From an uncultured virus (IMG/VR IMGVR_UViG_3300049170_000088) (taxonomy: Duplodnaviria; Heunggongvirae; Uroviricota; Caudoviricetes): a stretch of 20,000 bases of DNA. Shown piece by piece: positions 1,210 to 16,892 of the stretch. A program made the translations under genes and the position numbers. The notes under the pieces are model-generated. The model was not told the origin of the DNA. It did no database searches and worked only from the letters and a program-made list of their open reading frames with translations. Location of the stretch: IMG/VR virus record IMGVR_UViG_3300049170_000088. The stretch is one strand, 5' to 3'. Numbering within the stretch: position 1 is the stretch's first letter; the number at the start of each line of letters is the position of its first letter.

Positions 1210-1643
1210 GGGGTTCTCCGTTCTCTTTCAGGGCCCGCGGAGTCCCGGCCGTTCCGCCGGTCGGTGACGCGCAGGAGTTGTTGGGGTGGCTGCGGCGCGC
1301 GCGAGCCCGCGCTGATGCCGCTCGCGAGCTGGGCCAGACGCTCATCGCGCAGCCGGGCCGCGTCCTCGTCGGTGGTGCGCTCGGAGACCTCGGGCACGTG
1401 CCACATCCGCCTCGCGGCTTCCTTGCGCAGGGCGAAGGCGATCTCTCCGGCCGGTGAGTCGATGACCACGCGCAGGTGGCTGCCGCCCTCGATGGGCACC
1501 AGGGAGGACGGCCACATCCCGGCGAGCACGCCGAGCACCAGGGCCAAGTCCTCCTCGGTGCGCTCCAGGGCCTGGCTCAGCGCGTGGAACTCCTCGACCG
1601 ACGGCCGGAACTTGGCTCCGGCCGTCTTCTTGGCACCGGCTAT
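1206..1643 (-). CDS. Hypothetical protein in head module (start uncertain: ATA 1643, TTG 1547 or GTG 1538)
   Basis: 3' part of ORF 1206..2066 has strong GC3 bias from 1643 onward; its stop is coupled to the next ATG. Confidence 0.6.
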   Translation of the reverse strand: MAGAKKTAGAKFRPSVEEFHALSQALERTEEDLALVLGVLAGMWPSSLVPIEGGSHLRVVIDSPAGEIAFALRKEAARRMWHVPEVSERTTDEDAARLRDERLAQLASGISAGSRAPQPPQQLLRVTDRRNGRDSAGPERERRTP

Positions 1644-3931
1644 GACGCCACCGCCTCGGCCTCGGCCAGGGCCTGGGTGTCCTCGGCTGCGTTCGCGCGG
1701 GACTCCGCCCGCTTGGCCTGCCAGTGCGCGACGTCCGCGCAGCCCTGGGCGCGGGTCTTGGCGGTCACCCGCTGGGTCTTGGGCCAGTTCAGGCCGTCGG
1801 CCGGGTTGCCTCCGGCGCCGCCTCGGCACCACTTCTTGACGACGTTGACGGCCACCGCGATGGCATGGGACTCCGTCATGCCCTTGGCCATCAGGTGGTT
1901 GGCCACGCGCCGGATGAAGTTGGGCAGGTGCCCGGTGGTGGTCTTCTCGATCCAGTTCTCGCGGTTGCCCTTCTTGAAGCCCTCGGCCTCCGCGACGCCC
2001 GCGTACTCGCCCTCCTTGCCCTCCTCGGGCTGACAGGCGTGCATGATCTCCGGGTCGGCCAGACACTCGATCATGTAGGCGGCCAGCTCCTCGTGATACG
2101 CCGGGGAGCCGCCCACGTCACTGTCGCCGATGCCGCCGGATGCCTTGCCGGTGTCGCCGAGCGGTCCGGGACGCTCGGCGAGTTCGGCCATGCGCTTGGT
2201 CATGCTGGCGATGCGCGAGCCGGACAGCCGCTTCGCGGCCAGCTGCACGCGCGCGGTGCGCTCCGCGGCGAACACGCTCTCCGCGCGCGCCTGGTGCGCG
2301 TCGGCGTCCTGGCTCAGGGCGCCGCAGCCCAGCGCGGAGAACGGCGCTCCCTCGGCGCCGGCGCGAGCCCTGGTCTGGGGGAAGCCGGGCACGTTGACGG
2401 CGAGCGCGGCCACCAGCTCCATGCCGCCGCGCACCGCACGCCAGTCGCCGGACAGCCCGCACAGCGCGATGCGGGTGCGCTCCTCCTCGTCCAGGTGGGG
2501 CAGCAGGGAGCCCGCGCACCAGATGCCGAACTCGTCCTCGCCGACGGCGACGACGGCCGCCATGGTGCCGGTGTTGTCGTAGTGGGCCGTCGCGGAGGCG
2601 GGCAGCGCTTCCAGGGAGGCGTGGCCGGTGTCCATGGTGATGACGCCGACCTCGCGGATACCGCCGCCCTTGGTCTCCAGGAGGCGGGTGGCGTAGTAGG
2701 CGTAGCCCGTGTTGGACGGCGGGGCCATCACGCACCGCTTGTCCACGCCGATGTGGCAGACGTTCCACAGCGCGAGGTGGCCGAAGACGCGGTCGCCGGC
2801 GACGGTCCAGGGAGTGCCCTCGGCGAACGGGGGCCGCTCGAACCACGGGGCGGGGGGCTTGAAGGAGTCGGGGGCGAACTGGCCAACCGCGAGGGCGGTC
2901 GTGGTGGAGCGGACCAGCGAGGCCGCGGACTTCTTCTCGCCCTTCCAGGGAGCCTGGATGGAGGGGTCCTTGAAGGTGGTGGCGGCGCGGCTGTAGAGGG
3001 TGCTGAGCTTGGACTTCAGGCCGGAGGTGGACACGTCGGTGCCGCCGCGGCCACCCTGGACGACGGCCGCCGCGGCAACGACGCCGGAGAAGACGGCCTT
3101 CAGCTCGCCGTCGATGACGTCGGCGAAGGGGAACTTGTAGGAGCCGACGTTGTTGGGGTCGGCGTTCTCGTCGCGGTAGAGGAAGCCCTGGCTCATCTTG
3201 GCTACGTCCAGCGAGCCGTCTTCCTTCTTGGCGCGGGCGGCCATGCGCTTCTTCGCTCCGGCGCCGTCCCAGGACCGGCCGCGGTCGGCGAAGGGAAGGG
3301 AGGTGTTGCCGATCGCCGCGGCGGTGACCGCGTAGCCCTCGGTCAGCTTCTCGCCCTCGATGTCGCCGGTCTCCGCGTAGGAGGAGACGAACGCCTCGGG
3401 GAAAGCGGGCTGAGAGACGAGGGTGGCCCCCATCAGCCGCCAGTCGGAGAAGACGATGCCCTGGTGTGCGGGCAGTTCCTCGGGGTCATCACTGGCCGCG
3501 TAGGCAGCGCAGTCAACCAAGGAGCGGTTGTCTCCGATGCAGCCGATCTGGTGGGAGTCGTCGTCCAGGTCCACGCTCACGAAACGGAGCCAGTTCTGGT
3601 GGACCTTGCGGGCGACGTCGGCCGCGCGCTCGTCCTCCAGATCAAATCGGCCTTCCCCCATCAGCAGGTCGCCTTCGATCCAGGCGTGGTCGATCACGCC
3701 CACCGGGACGGCGCCGTCGTGGCCCTGACTCAGGGCGTCCTGGTAGAGGAGCGGGAGCGGGAGGGGACGGGTGCGGGGCACGCCGTTCTCGGGCCGGGCC
3801 AGGAGTCGCCGGTCACGGGAGGAGGCGAAGACGCCGAGCGGGGCCAGGACGCCCCTCCACGTGCCGGGGACCGGGGCGTCGTCGCCGTCGGTCTTGGAGT
3901 TCTGAGTGCTTTCAGTGGTTACGGTCATCAT
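1640..3931 (-). CDS. Capsid maturation (prohead) protease, multi-domain
   Basis: Motifs typical of actinophage proteases: WRGVLAPLG, PLPLPLLYQ, GHDGAVPVGVID, VSVDLDD, GATLVSQPAFPEA; second module RVFGHLALW..CH, TGHA, HYDNTG, GEDEFGIW, LSGDWR, LAVNVPGFP. Directly follows the portal. Confidence 0.8.
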   Translation of the reverse strand: MMTVTTESTQNSKTDGDDAPVPGTWRGVLAPLGVFASSRDRRLLARPENGVPRTRPLPLPLLYQDALSQGHDGAVPVGVIDHAWIEGDLLMGEGRFDLEDERAADVARKVHQNWLRFVSVDLDDDSHQIGCIGDNRSLVDCAAYAASDDPEELPAHQGIVFSDWRLMGATLVSQPAFPEAFVSSYAETGDIEGEKLTEGYAVTAAAIGNTSLPFADRGRSWDGAGAKKRMAARAKKEDGSLDVAKMSQGFLYRDENADPNNVGSYKFPFADVIDGELKAVFSGVVAAAAVVQGGRGGTDVSTSGLKSKLSTLYSRAATTFKDPSIQAPWKGEKKSAASLVRSTTTALAVGQFAPDSFKPPAPWFERPPFAEGTPWTVAGDRVFGHLALWNVCHIGVDKRCVMAPPSNTGYAYYATRLLETKGGGIREVGVITMDTGHASLEALPASATAHYDNTGTMAAVVAVGEDEFGIWCAGSLLPHLDEEERTRIALCGLSGDWRAVRGGMELVAALAVNVPGFPQTRARAGAEGAPFSALGCGALSQDADAHQARAESVFAAERTARVQLAAKRLSGSRIASMTKRMAELAERPGPLGDTGKASGGIGDSDVGGSPAYHEELAAYMIECLADPEIMHACQPEEGKEGEYAGVAEAEGFKKGNRENWIEKTTTGHLPNFIRRVANHLMAKGMTESHAIAVAVNVVKKWCRGGAGGNPADGLNWPKTQRVTAKTRAQGCADVAHWQAKRAESRANAAEDTQALAEAEAVAS

Positions 3932-3961: not shown

Positions 3962-6499
3962 TTAACCTTTGATCCCTGTTAGGTCCTTTGACCGATCCGG
4001 CCCAGGAATGTCTGTTTCCTCCCGAGGGGCGGAGAGGTCCGCCCACTCCGGGCATCCGCGCTCCGCCATCACGGCCCGCAGCAGCATCAGGTCGTGCGGC
4101 TTGCCCTCCCTGATCAGCGCCCGCACGTAGATGTCGACCAGCTCGTGCGTGCACGGCGCGTCCGGCAGCACCAGATGCAGATCCCGGTACGCCCCGGCGA
4201 GCATCAGTTCCGTCTGCTCGGTGTTCGGCTCCAGGTGCACGTGGATCTCGTGCTTGGGGATGTCCCGGTACTGCGCCCGCACCGGCCGGGACTGACGCGA
4301 CAGCAGCCAGTTGCCCGCCTTGTCCAGCGCGCGCACCGCGGCCATCTCCACGGCCTTCTCCACCGCCGCGGCGCCCGGCGCCGACGGCCCGGCCGGGGCC
4401 CCCTTGCTCTTGGGCTGCGGCCGGTCCTTGGCGCCCTCCTCCACCGGCCGACCCGACTTCTGCGGGGCCTTCTTGCCCCCGTCCCCCGAGGCGGCGCCGC
4501 CCGCGGCCGACGACTTGTTCTGCGCCGGCGAGCTCCCGCCGCCCTGCTGCTGGGTCTTGGGCGGCACCGGTGCCGAGGAAGCCACCTGGTTCTTCGCGTA
4601 CTCCTGGAGATCGGGGGTGTCGATGCCCAGCAGCGGCAGCAGCAGAGGGGCGATCAGGCCCTGCGAGGCCACGATCGACTGGAGTACGTGTCGGTTGCGC
4701 TCCTCCTTGGTGGGCGCGTCCTCGTCCCCGAAGCCCAGCACCTGCCGCAGCGCCCGCTCGCCCAGTGCGCCCTGCTGGTAGGCCTGGAGCGCCTGCTGCG
4801 GCCGGTTGGCCTGCTGCACCAGGTCCGACACGTCGTACCAGAGTGCGAACTCCTCGGTGTCCCCGACGCCGAGCGCTTCGAGCGAGGGCCGTAGGTACTG
4901 ATACGTCAGCGCGTCGCAGATCAGCGCGAGCAACGGCTCAATGTGGATCTTGATGCTCGACTCTTCGAGCGCCCACACGCTGTTCCCGGTCCAAAACACG
5001 GTGCCCTCGTGCCGGGCCAGCCACGTCTGGTTCCCGGTGGTGGGGCACCAGATGGTGCCCGTGTAGTACGTCTGGTTCATCTGCTTGGGCGTGGGCGTGA
5101 ACCGGCCGCGGTGCGCCAGCGACAGATCGCGGGCGCCGTCCTCGGTGTCGGTCAGCAGGTGGAAGTAGCCCAGCTCCGCGGAGAGCAGATCCTTGGAGGT
5201 CACCCACATCGGCACGCCGTGACGCGAGCGGACCGGCCAGCGGTGCGCGAGCGTGGTCAGCGAGTGATGCCCCTCGCCCTTCATCTCCACCATGGGCTCA
5301 GCGAGCACGTCCCACGTGTTGATCTCCTGGCACGCTCCCCACTCCGGGGCGCCGGTCTGGTGATTGAGGGTCATCACCTCCTCTCCCTGCTTCAGCTCGC
5401 CGTAGGTCTTCCAGCCGCCGCGGGTGAGAATTTCCGTTGTATCGGGCACGCACCAGTGGTTGATGTCGGCGATGCCCAGCAAGATTTCTGCCGGGATGTC
5501 CAGGCCGGAGGCGATGCGTTTGGTCGCGGCGTCGCGCAGGTCGGCCGCCGCGGCGTCCAGCGGCGTGGAGAAGGAGAAGTGCTTGATGCCGTTCCCGGCC
5601 TCCGCGGGCCCGCGCACCACGATGGGCACCACCGCCGAGGCGCTGCCGCGGTCCTTCAGCGGCGTCATCATCGCCTCCACCAGGGAGGCCGTGAACGGAT
5701 CGGAGTGGATGGGGTTGATGCCGTCGCCCTGCGCGGGCTGGGGGAAGGTCAGCTCGTCGGGCAGGAAGAGCAGACCCGCGCCGGCGAGGCGGGATTCCGC
5801 GGAGGCGGAGATGTGCGCGGAGAGGTCCAGCAGCTCCTTGCACGCCCCGCGCAGCGAGATGACCGGCGAGTCGGGGTACCAGTTGCGCCGGGGGTGCGGG
5901 CGCCAGATCCGGATGAGGGCCGCGTTGTCGGTGTCGATCTCGACCGGGTCCGGCTCGTCGGGCGGCGTGATCTGCATCGTCCCGGAGGCGGAGTTGGTGA
6001 CCTCTGCGGAGTTGACGACCTGCCAGATCCGCTCGTGGTCCTCGGGGTGGTCGTAACCGCAGATGTAGGTCTCGCCCACGAGGTTGATGTGGGTGGCCAG
6101 GCGCCGCAGCATCTCGCCCTGCCCGAGCTGGCCCCCGAACAGCTCGTAGTAGGGCTGGAGCACCCGGTCCATGCCGTCTTCGGAGGACTCGATCGGCGTG
6201 GGCGGCGCGGAGCCTTCCGGGTCGATGCGGCCGATGTAGAGCCTGGCCCTGGAACAGGCGTTGGCAATCCAGCCGATGCCGAAGCGCAGCTCGGGAACGG
6301 AGTCGTACAGCTCCCAGGCGTCGATCTGCCAGTCCGCGGCCTGGGAGACCGGCCGTACCCGGTCGCGGGTGATCAGCGCGGCGGAGGCGACGGTCGCGGT
6401 ACCGAAGGTGCGCGGGATGTGGTGGCCGTCGTCGGGCAGGTCGATGGTTCGGGTGTGGGTGGCGGTGGTCTTCCTGGTCAGCCGGGGAAAGACGCTCAC
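3962..6499 (-). CDS. Phage portal protein, intein-containing
   Basis: WQIDAWELYDSVPELRF..WIANACSRARLY, IRIWRPHP, SRLAGAGLLFLPDEL, SASAVVPIV, RIASGLDIPAEILLG..NHW are motifs recalled from actinophage portals; synteny with protease and capsid. Confidence 0.85.
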   Translation of the reverse strand: MSVFPRLTRKTTATHTRTIDLPDDGHHIPRTFGTATVASAALITRDRVRPVSQAADWQIDAWELYDSVPELRFGIGWIANACSRARLYIGRIDPEGSAPPTPIESSEDGMDRVLQPYYELFGGQLGQGEMLRRLATHINLVGETYICGYDHPEDHERIWQVVNSAEVTNSASGTMQITPPDEPDPVEIDTDNAALIRIWRPHPRRNWYPDSPVISLRGACKELLDLSAHISASAESRLAGAGLLFLPDELTFPQPAQGDGINPIHSDPFTASLVEAMMTPLKDRGSASAVVPIVVRGPAEAGNGIKHFSFSTPLDAAAADLRDAATKRIASGLDIPAEILLGIADINHWCVPDTTEILTRGGWKTYGELKQGEEVMTLNHQTGAPEWGACQEINTWDVLAEPMVEMKGEGHHSLTTLAHRWPVRSRHGVPMWVTSKDLLSAELGYFHLLTDTEDGARDLSLAHRGRFTPTPKQMNQTYYTGTIWCPTTGNQTWLARHEGTVFWTGNSVWALEESSIKIHIEPLLALICDALTYQYLRPSLEALGVGDTEEFALWYDVSDLVQQANRPQQALQAYQQGALGERALRQVLGFGDEDAPTKEERNRHVLQSIVASQGLIAPLLLPLLGIDTPDLQEYAKNQVASSAPVPPKTQQQGGGSSPAQNKSSAAGGAASGDGGKKAPQKSGRPVEEGAKDRPQPKSKGAPAGPSAPGAAAVEKAVEMAAVRALDKAGNWLLSRQSRPVRAQYRDIPKHEIHVHLEPNTEQTELMLAGAYRDLHLVLPDAPCTHELVDIYVRALIREGKPHDLMLLRAVMAERGCPEWADLSAPREETDIPGPDRSKDLTGIKG
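4982..5452 (-). mobile_element. Mini-intein (157 aa, no homing endonuclease) in portal, residues 350-506
   Basis: Block A CVPDTTEILTRGGW; block B TTLAHRW; block F YTGTIWCPTT; block G VFWTGN followed by Ser+1. Removing it gives the extein junction INHW|SVW. Confidence 0.92.
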
Positions 6500-6504
6500 T
6501 TAGA

Positions 6505-6828
6505 TCACCTCGCGTCCAGGTGCTGAGCGGCCAGGCCGGTCAGCCAGGAGAGGGTGAGCAGTCCGGCGCCCCACTGGTAGGCGAGGGTGTCTCCGTACTC
6601 GATCGCGGCCGGGGTGACTCCGGCGGCCACCCAGATCGACATGCACCAGGGGCAGCCGATCAGCTCGTTGAACCACTCCCAGCCCGCGGAGGGCTTGCCG
6701 CCCTCCTCCTGGGGGGTCGCCTTCTTCGCGAGGCGATCACGCAGGGGGAAGGTGATGCTGTCCCTGCCGATGAGGCGGGTGATGCGCGCGGTCGCGCCGA
6801 GGGCGGTGATGGCAGTGATCGGGTCCAC
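6505..6828 (-). CDS. DUF1360-like membrane protein
   Basis: ARITRLIGRDSIT..LRD, ELIGCPWCMSIWVA and hydrophobic segments; this family often lies upstream of actinophage portals. GTG at 6828. Confidence 0.8.
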   Translation of the reverse strand: MDPITAITALGATARITRLIGRDSITFPLRDRLAKKATPQEEGGKPSAGWEWFNELIGCPWCMSIWVAAGVTPAAIEYGDTLAYQWGAGLLTLSWLTGLAAQHLDAR

Positions 6829-6870
6829 GCGGCGCACACTAACCAAAAAGCGACATCACGCCCGGTAGCG
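6829..6870 (-). promoter_or_regulatory. Candidate promoter for the head operon giving a leaderless mRNA (-10 TAGTGT at 6836-6841)
   Basis: TANNNT hexamer 7 nt upstream of GTG 6828; no Shine-Dalgarno visible. Confidence 0.45.
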
Positions 6871-7567: not shown

Positions 7568-8179
7568 CTACGCCGCGGCGGACAGGCTCCTGTCCACGCT
7601 CGCCGCAACGCCGGCGGTTCCGGGACCCTGGGCCGCGCGCATGCGCTCCTTGTCCCGCAGCTCCGCATTGCGGTGCTCGCACATCTGGTGCCACTGCGCG
7701 CGCACCGAGGCGCCGCCGGGCTCGATCCACCCGTACTGCTCGCCCGTGCGTACCACCTCCTCGATGTCGTAGCCCTCCAGGGCGCCGACAGCGACGGCAG
7801 CCTGCATGCCGTGCCCGGCCGCCTTCATGCGCCCGATCGTCTTGCGCTCGCGCCCGAGAAGCCTGGCCGCTTCTCGCGCCGTGCAGAAACGGTCGGGCAC
7901 CTTGACGTACCAGTCGGGCGGCTCCTCATCCCGGCGCGGGCGTCCCACCCGGTCCGCGCGCGCCGGTCGGCCCCGCACGTCGATGCGGCCGGTCTCCTTG
8001 AGCCACCGCGTGATCCGCTTCTCCTCCCATCCCGGCTGGAAGCCGATGTAGATGTCCGGCCGCGGACACCAGGGACCGATCGCGATCTTGTCGAAGGTTC
8101 CCTTGGAGATGCCGACGCGGCGGTAGATGTCGTGGCCCGCCAGATAGCGGACCGGCTCATCTCTGCTGTCCTGGTTCAT
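7568..8179 (-). CDS. DNA-binding protein with two Xis/AlpA-like winged-HTH units
   Basis: YLAGHDIYRRVGISKGTF...PRPDIYIG..PGWEEKRITRW and FCTAREAARLLGRERKTI...GYDIEEVVR. Confidence 0.7.
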   Translation of the reverse strand: MNQDSRDEPVRYLAGHDIYRRVGISKGTFDKIAIGPWCPRPDIYIGFQPGWEEKRITRWLKETGRIDVRGRPARADRVGRPRRDEEPPDWYVKVPDRFCTAREAARLLGRERKTIGRMKAAGHGMQAAVAVGALEGYDIEEVVRTGEQYGWIEPGGASVRAQWHQMCEHRNAELRDKERMRAAQGPGTAGVAASVDRSLSAAA

Positions 8180-8735: not shown

Positions 8736-9395
8736 ATGAGCCTGCACGGCATCTGGTCCGAGGGCTCCCGCCGCACCGGCGGGGGCCCTTCGGGCATGCC
8801 CTCCTTCCAGCCCAGGCGGTGGCCGCTCAAGCCGCGGGCCAAGGTTCCCCAGGAGGACCCCACCGACGCGCAGGACGAGGCCAACCCCGCCCTGGACCGT
8901 TCCTCCTCCGGCGGCGAGAGTTCCGGCACCCACGGCGAGGGCCGCGGCATCGACGGGCGCGACAACGACAACCCGTCCACCCAGGACATCACCGTGCGCC
9001 GCAACGACCACCACGGCGACGACCACTCCGAGCCGCACCGCTCCAGCCGCAAGGATCTCGACAAGCGCCGCGGTGTGAAGGGCCTGCGCTCCCGCCGGCG
9101 CCGCGAGGCCGGAGGCGACCGCGAGGAGATGACGGCCGACCAGGAGGACGAACCCGCACCGCCGACCGCCTCCGTCCACACCGCCGCAGGGATCAGCATG
9201 AGCGACTTCGCGCCCACGTCCTTCCAGGCCGACAACGGCCCGCGCCCCCGGCTGCCCGGCACGACGCCGCTGCGCTACATCACCCCCTCCAAGCGCCCGC
9301 GCGCCGGGCTCGGCGCCTCCCGCTCGCGCAAGCTGCCCGGCCCCGAGCCGGTGAGCAGCCCACTGCCGTGTCCGGGGTGTCACAACCAGAGGTGA
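8736..9395 (+). CDS. Hypothetical, likely disordered protein with C-terminal CPGC
   Basis: Strong GC3; hydrophilic low-complexity composition. Confidence 0.65.
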   Translation: MSLHGIWSEGSRRTGGGPSGMPSFQPRRWPLKPRAKVPQEDPTDAQDEANPALDRSSSGGESSGTHGEGRGIDGRDNDNPSTQDITVRRNDHHGDDHSEPHRSSRKDLDKRRGVKGLRSRRRREAGGDREEMTADQEDEPAPPTASVHTAAGISMSDFAPTSFQADNGPRPRLPGTTPLRYITPSKRPRAGLGASRSRKLPGPEPVSSPLPCPGCHNQR

Positions 9396-9465
9396 CAGGA
9401 GCTCAGCCGGCAGACTTCGGCGTGGCGCATCACAGTGACCGGAATGACCCAGTTTCATCCGGTTC

Positions 9466-10614
9466 ATGGCACCACGCCTCGGCTCACTCTGCTCCGGATA
9501 CGGCGGCCTCGACATGGCCGTCTCCCACGTCTTCCATGCCCAAACGGTCTGGCACTGCGAGAACGCAGCCGCCCCGTCAGCGGTCCTCGCGCACCGCTTC
9601 CCCGGCATCCCCAACCTCGGCGACCTGAAGGAAGCCGACTTCACCGACGTCGAACCCATCGACATCCTCGCCGCGGGCTTCCCCTGCCAGGACGTCTCCA
9701 TCGCCGGACGCCGTGTCGGCATGCGCGAGGGCAACCGCTCCGGACTGTGGTCCCACGTCGTGCGCGCCATCGAGACCCTTCAACCGACCTGGGTGGTGAT
9801 CGAGAATGTCCGCGGACTCCTCTCCCAGAGGGCCCATGGCGTGCTGGAACCCTGCACGCGGTGTCTGGGACACCAAAAGCCGGAACACCGGCTGCGGGCA
9901 CTGGGAGCCGTACTCGGCGATCTGGCCCTGCTCGGGCTCGATGCGGAATGGCTGTGCCTACGCGCATCCGACGCCGGCGCGCCGCACCGGCGCGACCGCA
10001 CCTTCATCCTGGCCCGCCGCGCCGCTTCTGAAGACCCCGACCTCGAACATTGGCTCCAATGGCGGGACTCAGCATCCGGACAAGCGCAAGCGCGGCGGCC
10101 ATGGCCCGACCTTGGCGGACGAGGTGGAATGGGTGCTGCTGCCCACTCCGTCAGCCTCGAACCCCAACGACAGCGAGCCCCTGGAGAGCTGGGAGGCGCG
10201 CCGTCAGCGGAACCTGGCCAAGGGGATCAACGGGAACGGGCAGGGGACGCCGCTGGGTGTGGCTGTCCGGCTGCTGACGACCCCGGATGCGGCATCGTCT
10301 GGGGCAAGTACGAAGCCGTCATCCGCCGCTGGGAAGAGCTGATCGGGTACCCGGCACCGTGCCCGATCGGCTGGGTGAAGACGGGACGCCGGATCACACC
10401 GGAGTTCGTGGAGTGGATGATGGGCCTGCCCCCCGCATTCGTCACCGGCGTCCCCGGCATCTCCCGCACCCGGCAGTTCACCGTACTCGGCAACGGCGTC
10501 GTGCCCCAGCAGGCGGTGATGGCCCTGTCCATCCTGCGCGAGCGCTTCTCCCGCGAGGAGCAATGTGCCGAGGAGGCCGTGCAGCTCCTCCTGGACCTCA
10601 ACATGGCTTCCTGA
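9466..10614 (+). CDS. DNA (cytosine-5) methyltransferase
   Basis: Motif I GSLCSGYGGL, IV AAGFPCQDVS, VI IENVRGL, VIII GAPHRRDRTF, IX ITPEFVEWMMGLP, X LGNGVVPQQA. Confidence 0.95.
   Translation: MAPRLGSLCSGYGGLDMAVSHVFHAQTVWHCENAAAPSAVLAHRFPGIPNLGDLKEADFTDVEPIDILAAGFPCQDVSIAGRRVGMREGNRSGLWSHVVRAIETLQPTWVVIENVRGLLSQRAHGVLEPCTRCLGHQKPEHRLRALGAVLGDLALLGLDAEWLCLRASDAGAPHRRDRTFILARRAASEDPDLEHWLQWRDSASGQAQARRPWPDLGGRGGMGAAAHSVSLEPQRQRAPGELGGAPSAEPGQGDQRERAGDAAGCGCPAADDPGCGIVWGKYEAVIRRWEELIGYPAPCPIGWVKTGRRITPEFVEWMMGLPPAFVTGVPGISRTRQFTVLGNGVVPQQAVMALSILRERFSREEQCAEEAVQLLLDLNMAS
9806..10342 (+). CDS. Nested +1-frame ORF encoding methyltransferase TRD-like repeats (LLKTP/LLPTP/LLTTP)
   Basis: Repeats start at 10025, 10136 and 10271; from about 10025 to 10290 the GC3 bias is in this frame rather than the main frame. 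Confidence 0.7.
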   Translation: MSADSSPRGPMACWNPARGVWDTKSRNTGCGHWEPYSAIWPCSGSMRNGCAYAHPTPARRTGATAPSSWPAAPLLKTPTSNIGSNGGTQHPDKRKRGGHGPTLADEVEWVLLPTPSASNPNDSEPLESWEARRQRNLAKGINGNGQGTPLGVAVRLLTTPDAASSGASTKPSSAAGKS

Positions 10615-10622
10615 CCAGGGCG

Positions 10623-10659
10623 TTAAAAAGGGCCGTGAAGAAATCACGGCCCTTTTTAA
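10623..10659. terminator. Bidirectional intrinsic terminator
   Basis: TTAAAAAGGGCCGTGA-agaaa-TCACGGCCCTTTTTAA between convergent genes. Confidence 0.9.
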
Positions 10660-10696
10660 GGTCTGGCAGCGCCTGCCATTTCCGGCGCACCCACGG

Positions 10697-10969
10697 TCAG
10701 TACAGGTTGCGCTGGGCGTTCCACCGGGAGATGTACCAGGCGTAGACCGCGTTGCCGATTCCGGCGGTCAACAGCAGCAGCCAGAAGTGCGCCCAGAAGG
10801 ACTGGCGGCGCTTGCCGCGCACCCCCCACCCGGCCGCCGCGGAGGCGGAGGAGGAGGCGGAGTTGTTGATGATGATGGGCGGCACCGCGTAGCCCGCGGG
10901 CTGCGGCGGCAGGTGGTACTGGCCCTGCTGGGCGTGGTGCTGGTCGTACGGGCCCGGCGGCGTGGACAT
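10697..10969 (-). CDS. Small membrane protein (Pro/Gln-rich N-terminus, hydrophobic C-terminal hairpin)
   Basis: RBS AAGGAG, ATG 10969; FWAHFWLLLLTAGIGNAVYAWY. Confidence 0.8.
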   Translation of the reverse strand: MSTPPGPYDQHHAQQGQYHLPPQPAGYAVPPIIINNSASSSASAAAGWGVRGKRRQSFWAHFWLLLLTAGIGNAVYAWYISRWNAQRNLY

Positions 10970-16484: not shown

Positions 16485-16892
16485 ATGGAAACCTTCACGA
16501 TCAGCGCGGCCCGACAGAAGTGGGGCGCACTGTGCCGGGCTGCCCAAAGGGACGAGGTCCCCTTCACTCTGCGCCTGCGCCACGACCCGGCATGCGTCGC
16601 CGCGCCGAACCGCTGGTTCAAGCGAGCCTGCCGCGGACTGGACCCGGCCCCCGAGGTGCAGTCCAGCTTCGAGACCCACGACGACCAGCGGCAGAAGCTG
16701 GCCCGGCTGGTCGAGCCCGTCCTGGCGGACGGCGCCTTCGTCAGCGTCACGCGCCTGGAGGGCCGCGCCCTGGTACTGGTCCCCATCGACTGGTACGAGG
16801 AGCGAGTGGCGGCCATCGGGCCTCCCGCCGGCGACTTGCCGGAGCCGGAGAAGGAACCGGACGGCGGCGGCCAGGACCCCGCCGGAACGTGA
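16485..16892 (+). CDS. Tandem Phd/YefM-type DNA-binding protein
   Basis: Unit 1 TFTISAARQKWGALCRAA...FTLRLRHDPACVAAPNRWF; unit 2 THDDQRQKLARLVEPV...VSVTRLEGRALVLVPIDWYE. Confidence 0.7.
   Translation: METFTISAARQKWGALCRAAQRDEVPFTLRLRHDPACVAAPNRWFKRACRGLDPAPEVQSSFETHDDQRQKLARLVEPVLADGAFVSVTRLEGRALVLVPIDWYEERVAAIGPPAGDLPEPEKEPDGGGQDPAGT

Follow-up and report, generated by a model that had tools for sequence, protein, structure and literature searches.

Multispecific C5 cytosine methyltransferases of Bacillus phages (SPR, phi3T and rho11s) hold several short tandem recognition units between motifs VIII and IX, in a single chain and in one reading frame. According to two papers, M.EcoHK31I and M.AquI are the two C5 methyltransferases described as consisting of two chains (PMC2836561, PMC3404938). 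M.EcoHK31I of Escherichia coli HK31 (YGGCCR) is a heterodimer whose small chain comes from a gene nested in full inside that of the large chain and read in another frame; its alpha chain comprises motifs I-VIII, motif X and the target recognition domain (TRD), and its beta chain motif IX only (PMC2836561, PMC3404938). M.AquI (CYCGRG) is split in the variable region, the large subunit holding motifs I-VIII and the small one the rest of the variable region with motifs IX-X, and fragment complementation of monomeric C5 methyltransferases has also been reported (PMC3404938). Here we describe a methyltransferase locus in a stretch of 20,000 nucleotides (nt) from an uncultured virus (IMG/VR record IMGVR_UViG_3300049170_000088; hereafter the window), in which two overlapping frames of the same strand are both conserved and both under selection, and in which the two products are predicted to dock. 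We propose, with a probability of roughly 0.78, that one C5 cytosine methyltransferase is made from this locus as two polypeptides, alpha' and beta', encoded by two overlapping genes.

The alpha' gene (9466-10614, plus strand, frame 0) encodes a C5 cytosine methyltransferase chain of 382 residues with motifs I-VIII, a linker, and motifs IX and X; motif coordinates were derived by arithmetic from the translations of the open reading frames (ORFs) and from the invariant residues. Motif I, the glycine-rich loop that binds S-adenosylmethionine, is located at 9487-9513 (residues 8-16, with G11, G13 and G14 nearly invariant), motif IV, GFPCQD with the catalytic Cys74, at 9676-9693 (residues 71-76; G71, F72, P73, C74 and D76 invariant), motif VI (ENV) at 9802-9810 (E113, N114 and V115, all invariant) and motif VIII at 9976-9999 (residues 171-178; G171, A172, H174, R176 and R178 invariant). 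The linker (10015-10299, residues 184-278) is a low-complexity stretch of 95 residues that results from the out-of-frame reading of the module DNA described below. It is followed by the C-terminal part (10300-10614), with a WG.Y...W helix region (10300-10341), motif IX (10387-10431), motif X (10489-10512) and the stop codon (10612-10614); W279, G280, W289, F314, V315, E316, W317, G342 and N343 are invariant. The N-terminal motifs of the Dcm superfamily (I, IV, VI and VIII) are therefore all present in alpha', and motifs IX and X are present in frame 0, as judged from PHROG profiles and invariant residues. Pfam PF00145 (C-5 cytosine DNA methylase) matched residues 6-187 (E 2.1e-31), the C-terminal half being without a Pfam match, and TIGR00675 matched with E 1.5e-27 and 97.1 bits, below its cut-off of 100.65. 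Two PHROG 'DNA methyltransferase' profiles covered most of the chain (phrog_363, residues 1-355; phrog_116, residues 2-369). A third profile, phrog_1008, was found twice, on beta' residues 9-126 (profile positions 71-213, E 2.8e-11) and on alpha' residues 259-365 (profile positions 204-325), indicating that a single profile is split over two frames. No TRD was found between motifs VIII and IX of this chain: frame 0 is an unselected low-complexity linker there, and the modules lie in the +1 frame.

The beta' gene (9806-10342, plus strand, +1 frame) is located wholly inside the alpha' gene, starts with an ATG and encodes 178 residues. It begins with a predicted docking element, which we call element E (9836-9961, beta' residues 11-52) and which shares its coding bases with alpha' motifs VI-VIII. 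Two putative recognition modules follow, module A, starting with LLKTP (10025-10135, residues 74-110), and module B, starting with LLPTP (10136-10270, residues 111-155), which align with residues 218-254 and 410-456, respectively, of the single-chain relative P0140. A truncated third unit, LLTTP (10271-10291), leads into the beta' tail (together 10271-10342), which overlaps the start of the alpha' C-terminal part and ends at the TGA at 10340-10342.

The codon composition changes accordingly along the gene. In a window with 69% GC overall, GC at codon positions 1/2/3 was 0.74/0.50/0.83 for frame 0 at 9466-10015 and 0.66/0.48/0.90 at 10300-10614, versus 0.86/0.67/0.54 in the module region (10020-10290), where the +1 frame gave 0.66/0.54/0.85. 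Third-position GC (GC3) of the module region averaged 0.86 in the +1 frame and 0.64 in frame 0, and the +1 value was the higher one in all 69 related loci compared. These data bear out what the initial annotation had read from the window's sequence, namely a main ORF with all catalytic motifs and a junk-like middle, a GC3-rich +1 frame with LLKTP, LLPTP and LLTTP units, and a nested ATG formed by the ENV codons.

The modules correspond to a widespread protein sequence. The 95-residue +1 peptide (10016-10300) matched 1734 representative proteins at E<=0.001, of which 598 remained at E<=1e-10; most of the matches are module-only proteins. A motif search placed motifs IV and VIII in the same chain as the modules in 9 of the 150 best relatives. 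A Pfam scan of 30 of these 150 (the 29 with at least 400 residues, plus P0127) identified PF00145 in the same chain in 10, which indicates that the modules are real protein. Modules are arranged in tandem and shuffled: a locus has 0-5 of them, and the 73 loci classed show about 40 architectures, the window having two and a stub; class A was found in 14 of the 73 loci and class B in 11, the classing being crude in each case. For beta' as a whole, no family was found in Pfam (E<=0.1) or NCBIfam (E<=0.01), a profile of beta chains had no match among PDB sequences at E<=1, and an ESM Atlas search gave only clusters of unnamed 'hypothetical protein' from Actinomycetota and Uroviricota, which is a lead only. 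For the statement in the initial annotation that phage C5 methyltransferases have their TRDs marked by LPTP units, no source paper could be identified; in-frame carriers of such units do exist. One relative of the +1 peptide with LL.TP modules, P0130 (447 residues), showed a weak N-terminal match to LAGLIDADG endonucleases (E 4e-4, below the cut-off).

The closest homologue with DNA, the gene STRVI_RS49775 on the Streptomyces violaceusniger plasmid pSTRVI02, aligned over the whole gene without an indel. Its +1 ORF is full-length, 88% identical, has a stop followed by an ATG in ENV, and ends at the same point as beta'. The differences between the two genes, counted at frame-0 codon positions 1/2/3, were 9/13/33 in 9466-9805, 7/1/8 in 9806-10015, 18/6/4 in 10016-10296 and 12/13/33 in 10300-10614; in 10016-10296 most of them are at +1 third positions. 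Thus, the selected frame is frame 0, then +1, then frame 0 again, and the stretch 9806-10015 is constrained in both frames.

We also compared the window with the best 80 related loci, taken from 572 confirmed among 603 matching stretches of bacterial genomes. Motifs IV, VI and VIII were in one frame in 79 of these 81 loci, which belong to Streptomyces, Kitasatospora, Nonomuraea, Actinomadura, Micromonospora, Amycolatopsis, Lentzea and other genera. At least one LL.TP unit was found in the +1 frame in 75 of the 79, and three of these 75 also had units in frame 0; in ten other loci the sole frame-0 LL.TP match is a chance one directly after motif VIII. In addition, a contig of the Logan assembly of run X1 spanned 9400-10700 with 0 differences and 0 gaps at a mean depth of 606, a check of the assembler only since this run is possibly from the same sample as the window; run X2 contained only short parts of relatives. 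Taken together, the layout in this family argues that the +1 arrangement is neither a sequence error nor a decayed gene. As side observations, the +1 frame of L005 (Lentzea) has a stop inside a module at about 1973-2180, with frame 0 open, so that its beta chain may be cut short, and three loci from Amycolatopsis and Sciscionella (L063, L067 and L071) have LL.TP units partly in +1 and partly in frame 0, with the C-terminal part in +1 or the third frame. The additional frame changes within the module array of these three reflect either a different wiring or decay.

When 76 loci were printed in both frames, a conserved +1 reading was visible over frame-0 motifs VI-VIII. Codon usage at synonymous sites was then compared across 71 non-redundant loci aligned by their frame-0 codons. 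At column 182 the Ala codon was GCC in 71 of 71, which keeps a Pro in the +1 frame, and at column 185 the Gly codon was GGG in 69 of 69, which keeps a +1 Gly. Similarly, the Ala codon of column 188 was GCG in 42 of 47 and never GCC (+1 Arg), the Leu codon of column 193 was the rare CTA in 33 of 41 (+1 Tyr), and the Leu codon of column 181 was of the form xTG in 59 of 70 (+1 Trp). Outside this stretch of the gene, the same amino acids showed the usual mix of GCC, GGC and CTC. The resulting +1 motif, of the WP.SG type, was present in 54 of 71 loci, versus 1.1% of reshuffles that preserve frame 0 (at most 3.7% for any locus). In P0140, element E aligns with residues 189-205, where it stands in frame after motif VIII and without overlap. 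Selection on both proteins spans about 210 nt, or about 70 codons. As element E and motifs VII-VIII share bases and both are conserved, one passage of a ribosome cannot yield both, and two polypeptides are required.

The frame in which motifs IX-X are read divides the 79 loci into two main wirings. In type a (41 loci, including the window) motifs IX-X are in frame 0, which runs through motif X without a stop in all 35 loci where X was found. In type b (32 loci) they are in the +1 frame, which is likewise uninterrupted through X in 29 of 29, and, except in L063 and L071, frame 0 ends 24-114 nt past motif VIII. Two further loci have motifs IX-X in the third frame, and four were left unclassified as truncated or degenerate. 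Frame 0 of type a contained no stop in 5526 codons of the module region (41 loci), versus 43 expected from the density in type b, where 38 further frame-0 stops occurred in 4836 module-region codons. Reshuffles that preserve the +1 protein kept frame 0 open in a median of 23% of cases per locus (22.8% for the window). Frame 0 is thus open exactly where it is needed to reach motifs IX-X, which supports a read-through alpha' with a meaningless linker and speaks against a frameshift back. On a quick IQ-TREE tree of the N-terminal domain (73 rows), the a/b label needed 5 changes at the simplest, with at least 3 forced by well-supported branches, versus an average of 24 for shuffled labels, which indicates that the C-terminal part has switched chains several times. 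A type-b beta chain folded alone (alignment A4, 19 rows) gave a poor model, with a mean predicted local distance difference test value (pLDDT) of 53.5 and a predicted template modelling score (pTM) of 0.35.

We then considered where beta' might start. The ATG at 9806-9808 is built from the Asn and Val codons of ENV (gag aAT Gtc), the Asn being encoded by AAT, and a +1 TGA is present two codons upstream (9797-9799). Among 76 loci, the Asn codon of ENV was AAT in 29 and AAC in 47. In the non-redundant set it was AAT in 28 of 71, whereas two other Asn columns had AAT in 7 of 71 and in 1 of 16, so that the ATG seen in the window is enriched in its relatives. The preference is found in loci with a long insert between ENV and motif VIII, the group to which the window belongs: 29 of these 36 have AAT, and with it the ATG, usually with a +1 TGA two codons upstream, and three of the remaining seven have a TTG two codons upstream. 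Upstream of ENV, the +1 frame of the window's group was open in 12 of 25 loci versus an expected fraction of 0.37, which is chance level and indicates that beta' is not extended upstream in this group.

In the short-insert loci, conservation of the +1 frame reaches across ENV to positions further upstream, and 18 loci have a GTG that derives from a rare AGT Ser codon 66 nt upstream. In the same loci, rare codons in frame-0 alignment columns 108-110 (about 9787-9795; Leu as CTA/CTT, Arg as CGA in 39 of 46) keep a +1 aromatic-Asp-Pro motif. A remnant of this motif can be read before the +1 stop in the window's group, suggesting that the long insert originated through a duplication. One type-b clade (L041 and L046-L076; Micromonospora, Plantactinospora and kin) has the +1 frame open over the whole N-terminal domain, as far back as a start codon close to that of alpha, in all 19 loci versus 0.44 each in reshuffles, which is modest evidence as this is one clade; it may represent a fully overlapping version or another start of beta.

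A model of the complex of alpha' (alignment A3, 46 rows) and beta' (alignment A2, 47 rows) scored 0.85, and the best of three controls 0.00. Such a mark is reached by 116 of 157 solved complexes and by 2 of 215 mismatched pairs, counts that are rough here because of the custom alignments. The runs agreed in at least 56% of contacts, and the pLDDT of the partner was at least 58. Confident contacts link alpha' residues 116-186 and 276-343 with beta' residues 14-54 (element E) and, where the two modules begin, with residues 69-84 and 103-113. The tightest pairs join alpha' 159-162 to beta' 43-47, and both segments are encoded by bases 9940-9946. The model supports, as a prediction, binding of alpha' and beta'.

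We propose the following scheme. Ribosomes starting at ATG 9466 would produce alpha' (382 residues), with the catalytic core of motifs I-VIII, the meaningless 95-residue linker and motifs IX-X. Those starting at ATG 9806, in the +1 frame and inside the ENV codons, would produce beta' (178 residues), with element E followed by the two LL(K/P)TP modules. Element E is predicted to dock on the alpha' strand around residues 159-162, and the pair would form the active enzyme, in which beta' would supply target recognition. In a phage, such an enzyme would most likely methylate the phage DNA against host restriction. The initial annotation had left a choice between a two-chain enzyme with a separate specificity subunit and a double frameshift. 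Selection on the +1 frame in the modules and over motifs VI-VIII, the enrichment of the ATG within ENV, the maintenance of an open frame 0, and a complex model that passes its controls all favour the former. The two-gene annotation of Arthrobacter phage KBurrousTX (below) and the documented two-chain C5 methyltransferases and fragment complementation point the same way.

Four other explanations were weighed. The double frameshift could be real and programmed: a ribosome starting at 9466 would shift by +1 after motif VIII, read the modules and shift back before 10300, giving one chain. Such a chain would resemble the single-chain relatives (9 of 150 by motif search, 10 of 30 by Pfam), and it would agree with the lack of a visible strong ribosome-binding site before 9806. 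Yet the first module lies anywhere from about 4 to 30 codons beyond motif VIII, and inspection of the 76 loci revealed no shared slippery sequence, no formal motif search having been run. Frame 0 would also have no need to stay open, yet it has 0 stops in 5526 codons and is open to the end in all 35 type-a loci with motif X. Furthermore, the +1 frame is selected upstream of any shift site, on the bases of motifs VII-VIII, so that a shifted chain would lose either that element or motif VIII, and the enrichment of the ATG at ENV would be left unexplained. We therefore regard programmed frameshifting as unlikely. A scheme with three products, a short alpha that functionally ends after motif VIII, beta' from 9806, and motifs IX-X from an internal frame-0 start such as ATG 10126, appeared somewhat less probable still. 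By eye, that ATG does have a GAGG-like stretch a few bases upstream, but it stems from a +1 Glu-Trp pair that is missing in most relatives, and frame 0 is open over the entire stretch from motif VIII, not just past such a start.

The double frameshift could also be the trace of two compensating indels, in a dead or dying gene or through sequence error, with frame 0 open merely because high-GC DNA has few stops. High GC does open many frames (32 ORFs of at least 40 residues in 3 kb), and the reshuffles leave the window's frame 0 open in 23% of cases. This explanation is nonetheless very improbable, given the X1 assembly without differences or gaps (as an assembler check), the same layout without indels in pSTRVI02, the modules in +1 in 75 of 79 loci from many actinobacterial genera, and purifying selection in both frames; this form of the double frameshift is accordingly not supported. 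We gave the least credence to an untranslated +1 frame conserved for a function of the DNA or RNA, such as structure or recombination repeats. The repeats that encode LL.TP could serve recombination, and module order is very variable, but substitutions fall on +1 third positions, the +1 codon bias is that of coding sequence, and the same peptide modules stand in frame in annotated methyltransferases.

Several points weigh against the scheme of two polypeptides. No clear Shine-Dalgarno sequence was seen before ATG 9806 on inspection, and a promoter scan of 9300-10800 returned 0 sites. The short-insert loci are without the ATG (AAC in 42 of 43), and the GTG codons at -66 or -54 are candidate starts only. 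The summed ln p of -55.6 over 37 loci for an open frame 0 overstates independence, as the loci are related, although the contrast between types a and b is clear nonetheless. The score of the complex model may reflect likeness to solved single-chain C5 methyltransferases. The relatives with catalytic motifs and modules in one chain suggest that a single-chain form is viable, and a low-level frameshifted fusion product might be made in addition. Finally, we infer initiation at 9806, formation of the heterodimer, its activity and its target from sequence and models.

Annotated relatives record this arrangement in different ways. Arthrobacter phage KBurrousTX has two overlapping genes annotated as 'DNA methyltransferase', of which 79 ends after motif VIII and 80, in +1, comprises the modules and motifs IX-X. 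The annotated start of gene 80 is the first module and omits element E, which is open and conserved upstream in +1. In Streptomyces phage Raleigh (gp38) there is a single read-through ORF of 519 residues, as in bacterial records including that of pSTRVI02, and the database proteins P0002-P0120 likewise run straight through frame 0 with the same low-complexity middle. The nested ORF matched 171 phage records (Mycobacterium 74, Arthrobacter 43, Gordonia 31, Streptomyces 15, and others), many with two adjacent methyltransferase features under the match.

The window itself is phage-like. On the minus strand it encodes a fragment of a major head protein (1-714), a portal protein (3962-6499; phrog_776, E 9e-143) and, between these two, a second protein that is portal-like or head-morphogenesis-like (1640-3931), as well as a DUF1360 protein (6505-6846) and a DNA-binding protein (7568-8179). 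Pfam searches of 12 neighbouring ORFs identified only DUF1360 and, in a small ORF at 16485-16892, a weak match to the Phd/YefM antitoxin (E 3.9e-6, 27 bits, under the Pfam cut-off of 29.8 bits). The methyltransferase stop is immediately followed by a hairpin of 16 bp (10623-10660) with an A run and a T run on its flanks, likely a two-way terminator between convergent genes. The fold of 10612-10668 had -35.2 kcal/mol and a z score of -7.6, with 0 of 200 shuffles as good; a simple terminator scan did not report the hairpin.

It is rare in bacteria and phages that genes on the same strand share a long, conserved overlap in which both frames are selected. We suggest tentatively, at somewhat less than even odds, that the window represents a very large and mostly mis-annotated actinobacterial and actinophage family of C5 methyltransferases that are obligate two-chain enzymes. 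In such a family, about 70 codons would be selected in both frames, residues that share their coding bases (alpha' 159-162 and beta' 43-47) would touch, one-base indels would repeatedly have re-wired motifs IX-X, and modules would be shuffled without touching the catalytic chain. Since the nested layout allows such shuffling, the window's two modules would give two targets, a suggestion based on modular shuffling. Our literature searches (cytosine methyltransferases, overlapping or alternative frames, Streptomyces, actinobacteriophages, LLPTP, M.AquI) found no paper on this family, nor did a review of frameshifting mention it within the first 300,000 characters (PMC5009743). Its database records consist of one ORF with an out-of-frame 'variable region' artefact, or of two genes with a truncated second start, and specificity predictions and structural models derived from such records work with the wrong recognition domain. 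The proposal is easily testable, as changing AAT to AAC at 9805-9807, a single base and silent in alpha', removes the start of beta'. If the modules set the target, the family would be a natural two-part, modular methyltransferase scaffold.

In comparison with the enzymes described above, the tandem units may be comparable in arrangement to those of the multispecific Bacillus phage enzymes (SPR, phi3T, rho11s); the relatives found here have 0-5 modules in variable order and, unlike in those enzymes, the modules are out of frame with the catalytic chain. The 32 type-b relatives among the 79 loci are similar to M.AquI in having motifs IX-X on the +1 chain. The window differs from M.AquI in that motifs IX-X are on alpha' through a second frame change, and probably also in its long, dual-coding gene overlap. 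The closest precedent is M.EcoHK31I, with the parts divided differently. The analogy with this enzyme made in the initial annotation holds for the nesting, the beta' gene being wholly inside the alpha' gene and in another frame, as far as a comparison by description goes. It does not hold for the distribution of the parts: in contrast to M.EcoHK31I, alpha' contains motifs I-VIII, IX and X, the nested beta' contains the docking element and the modules, and about 210 nt are selected in both frames.

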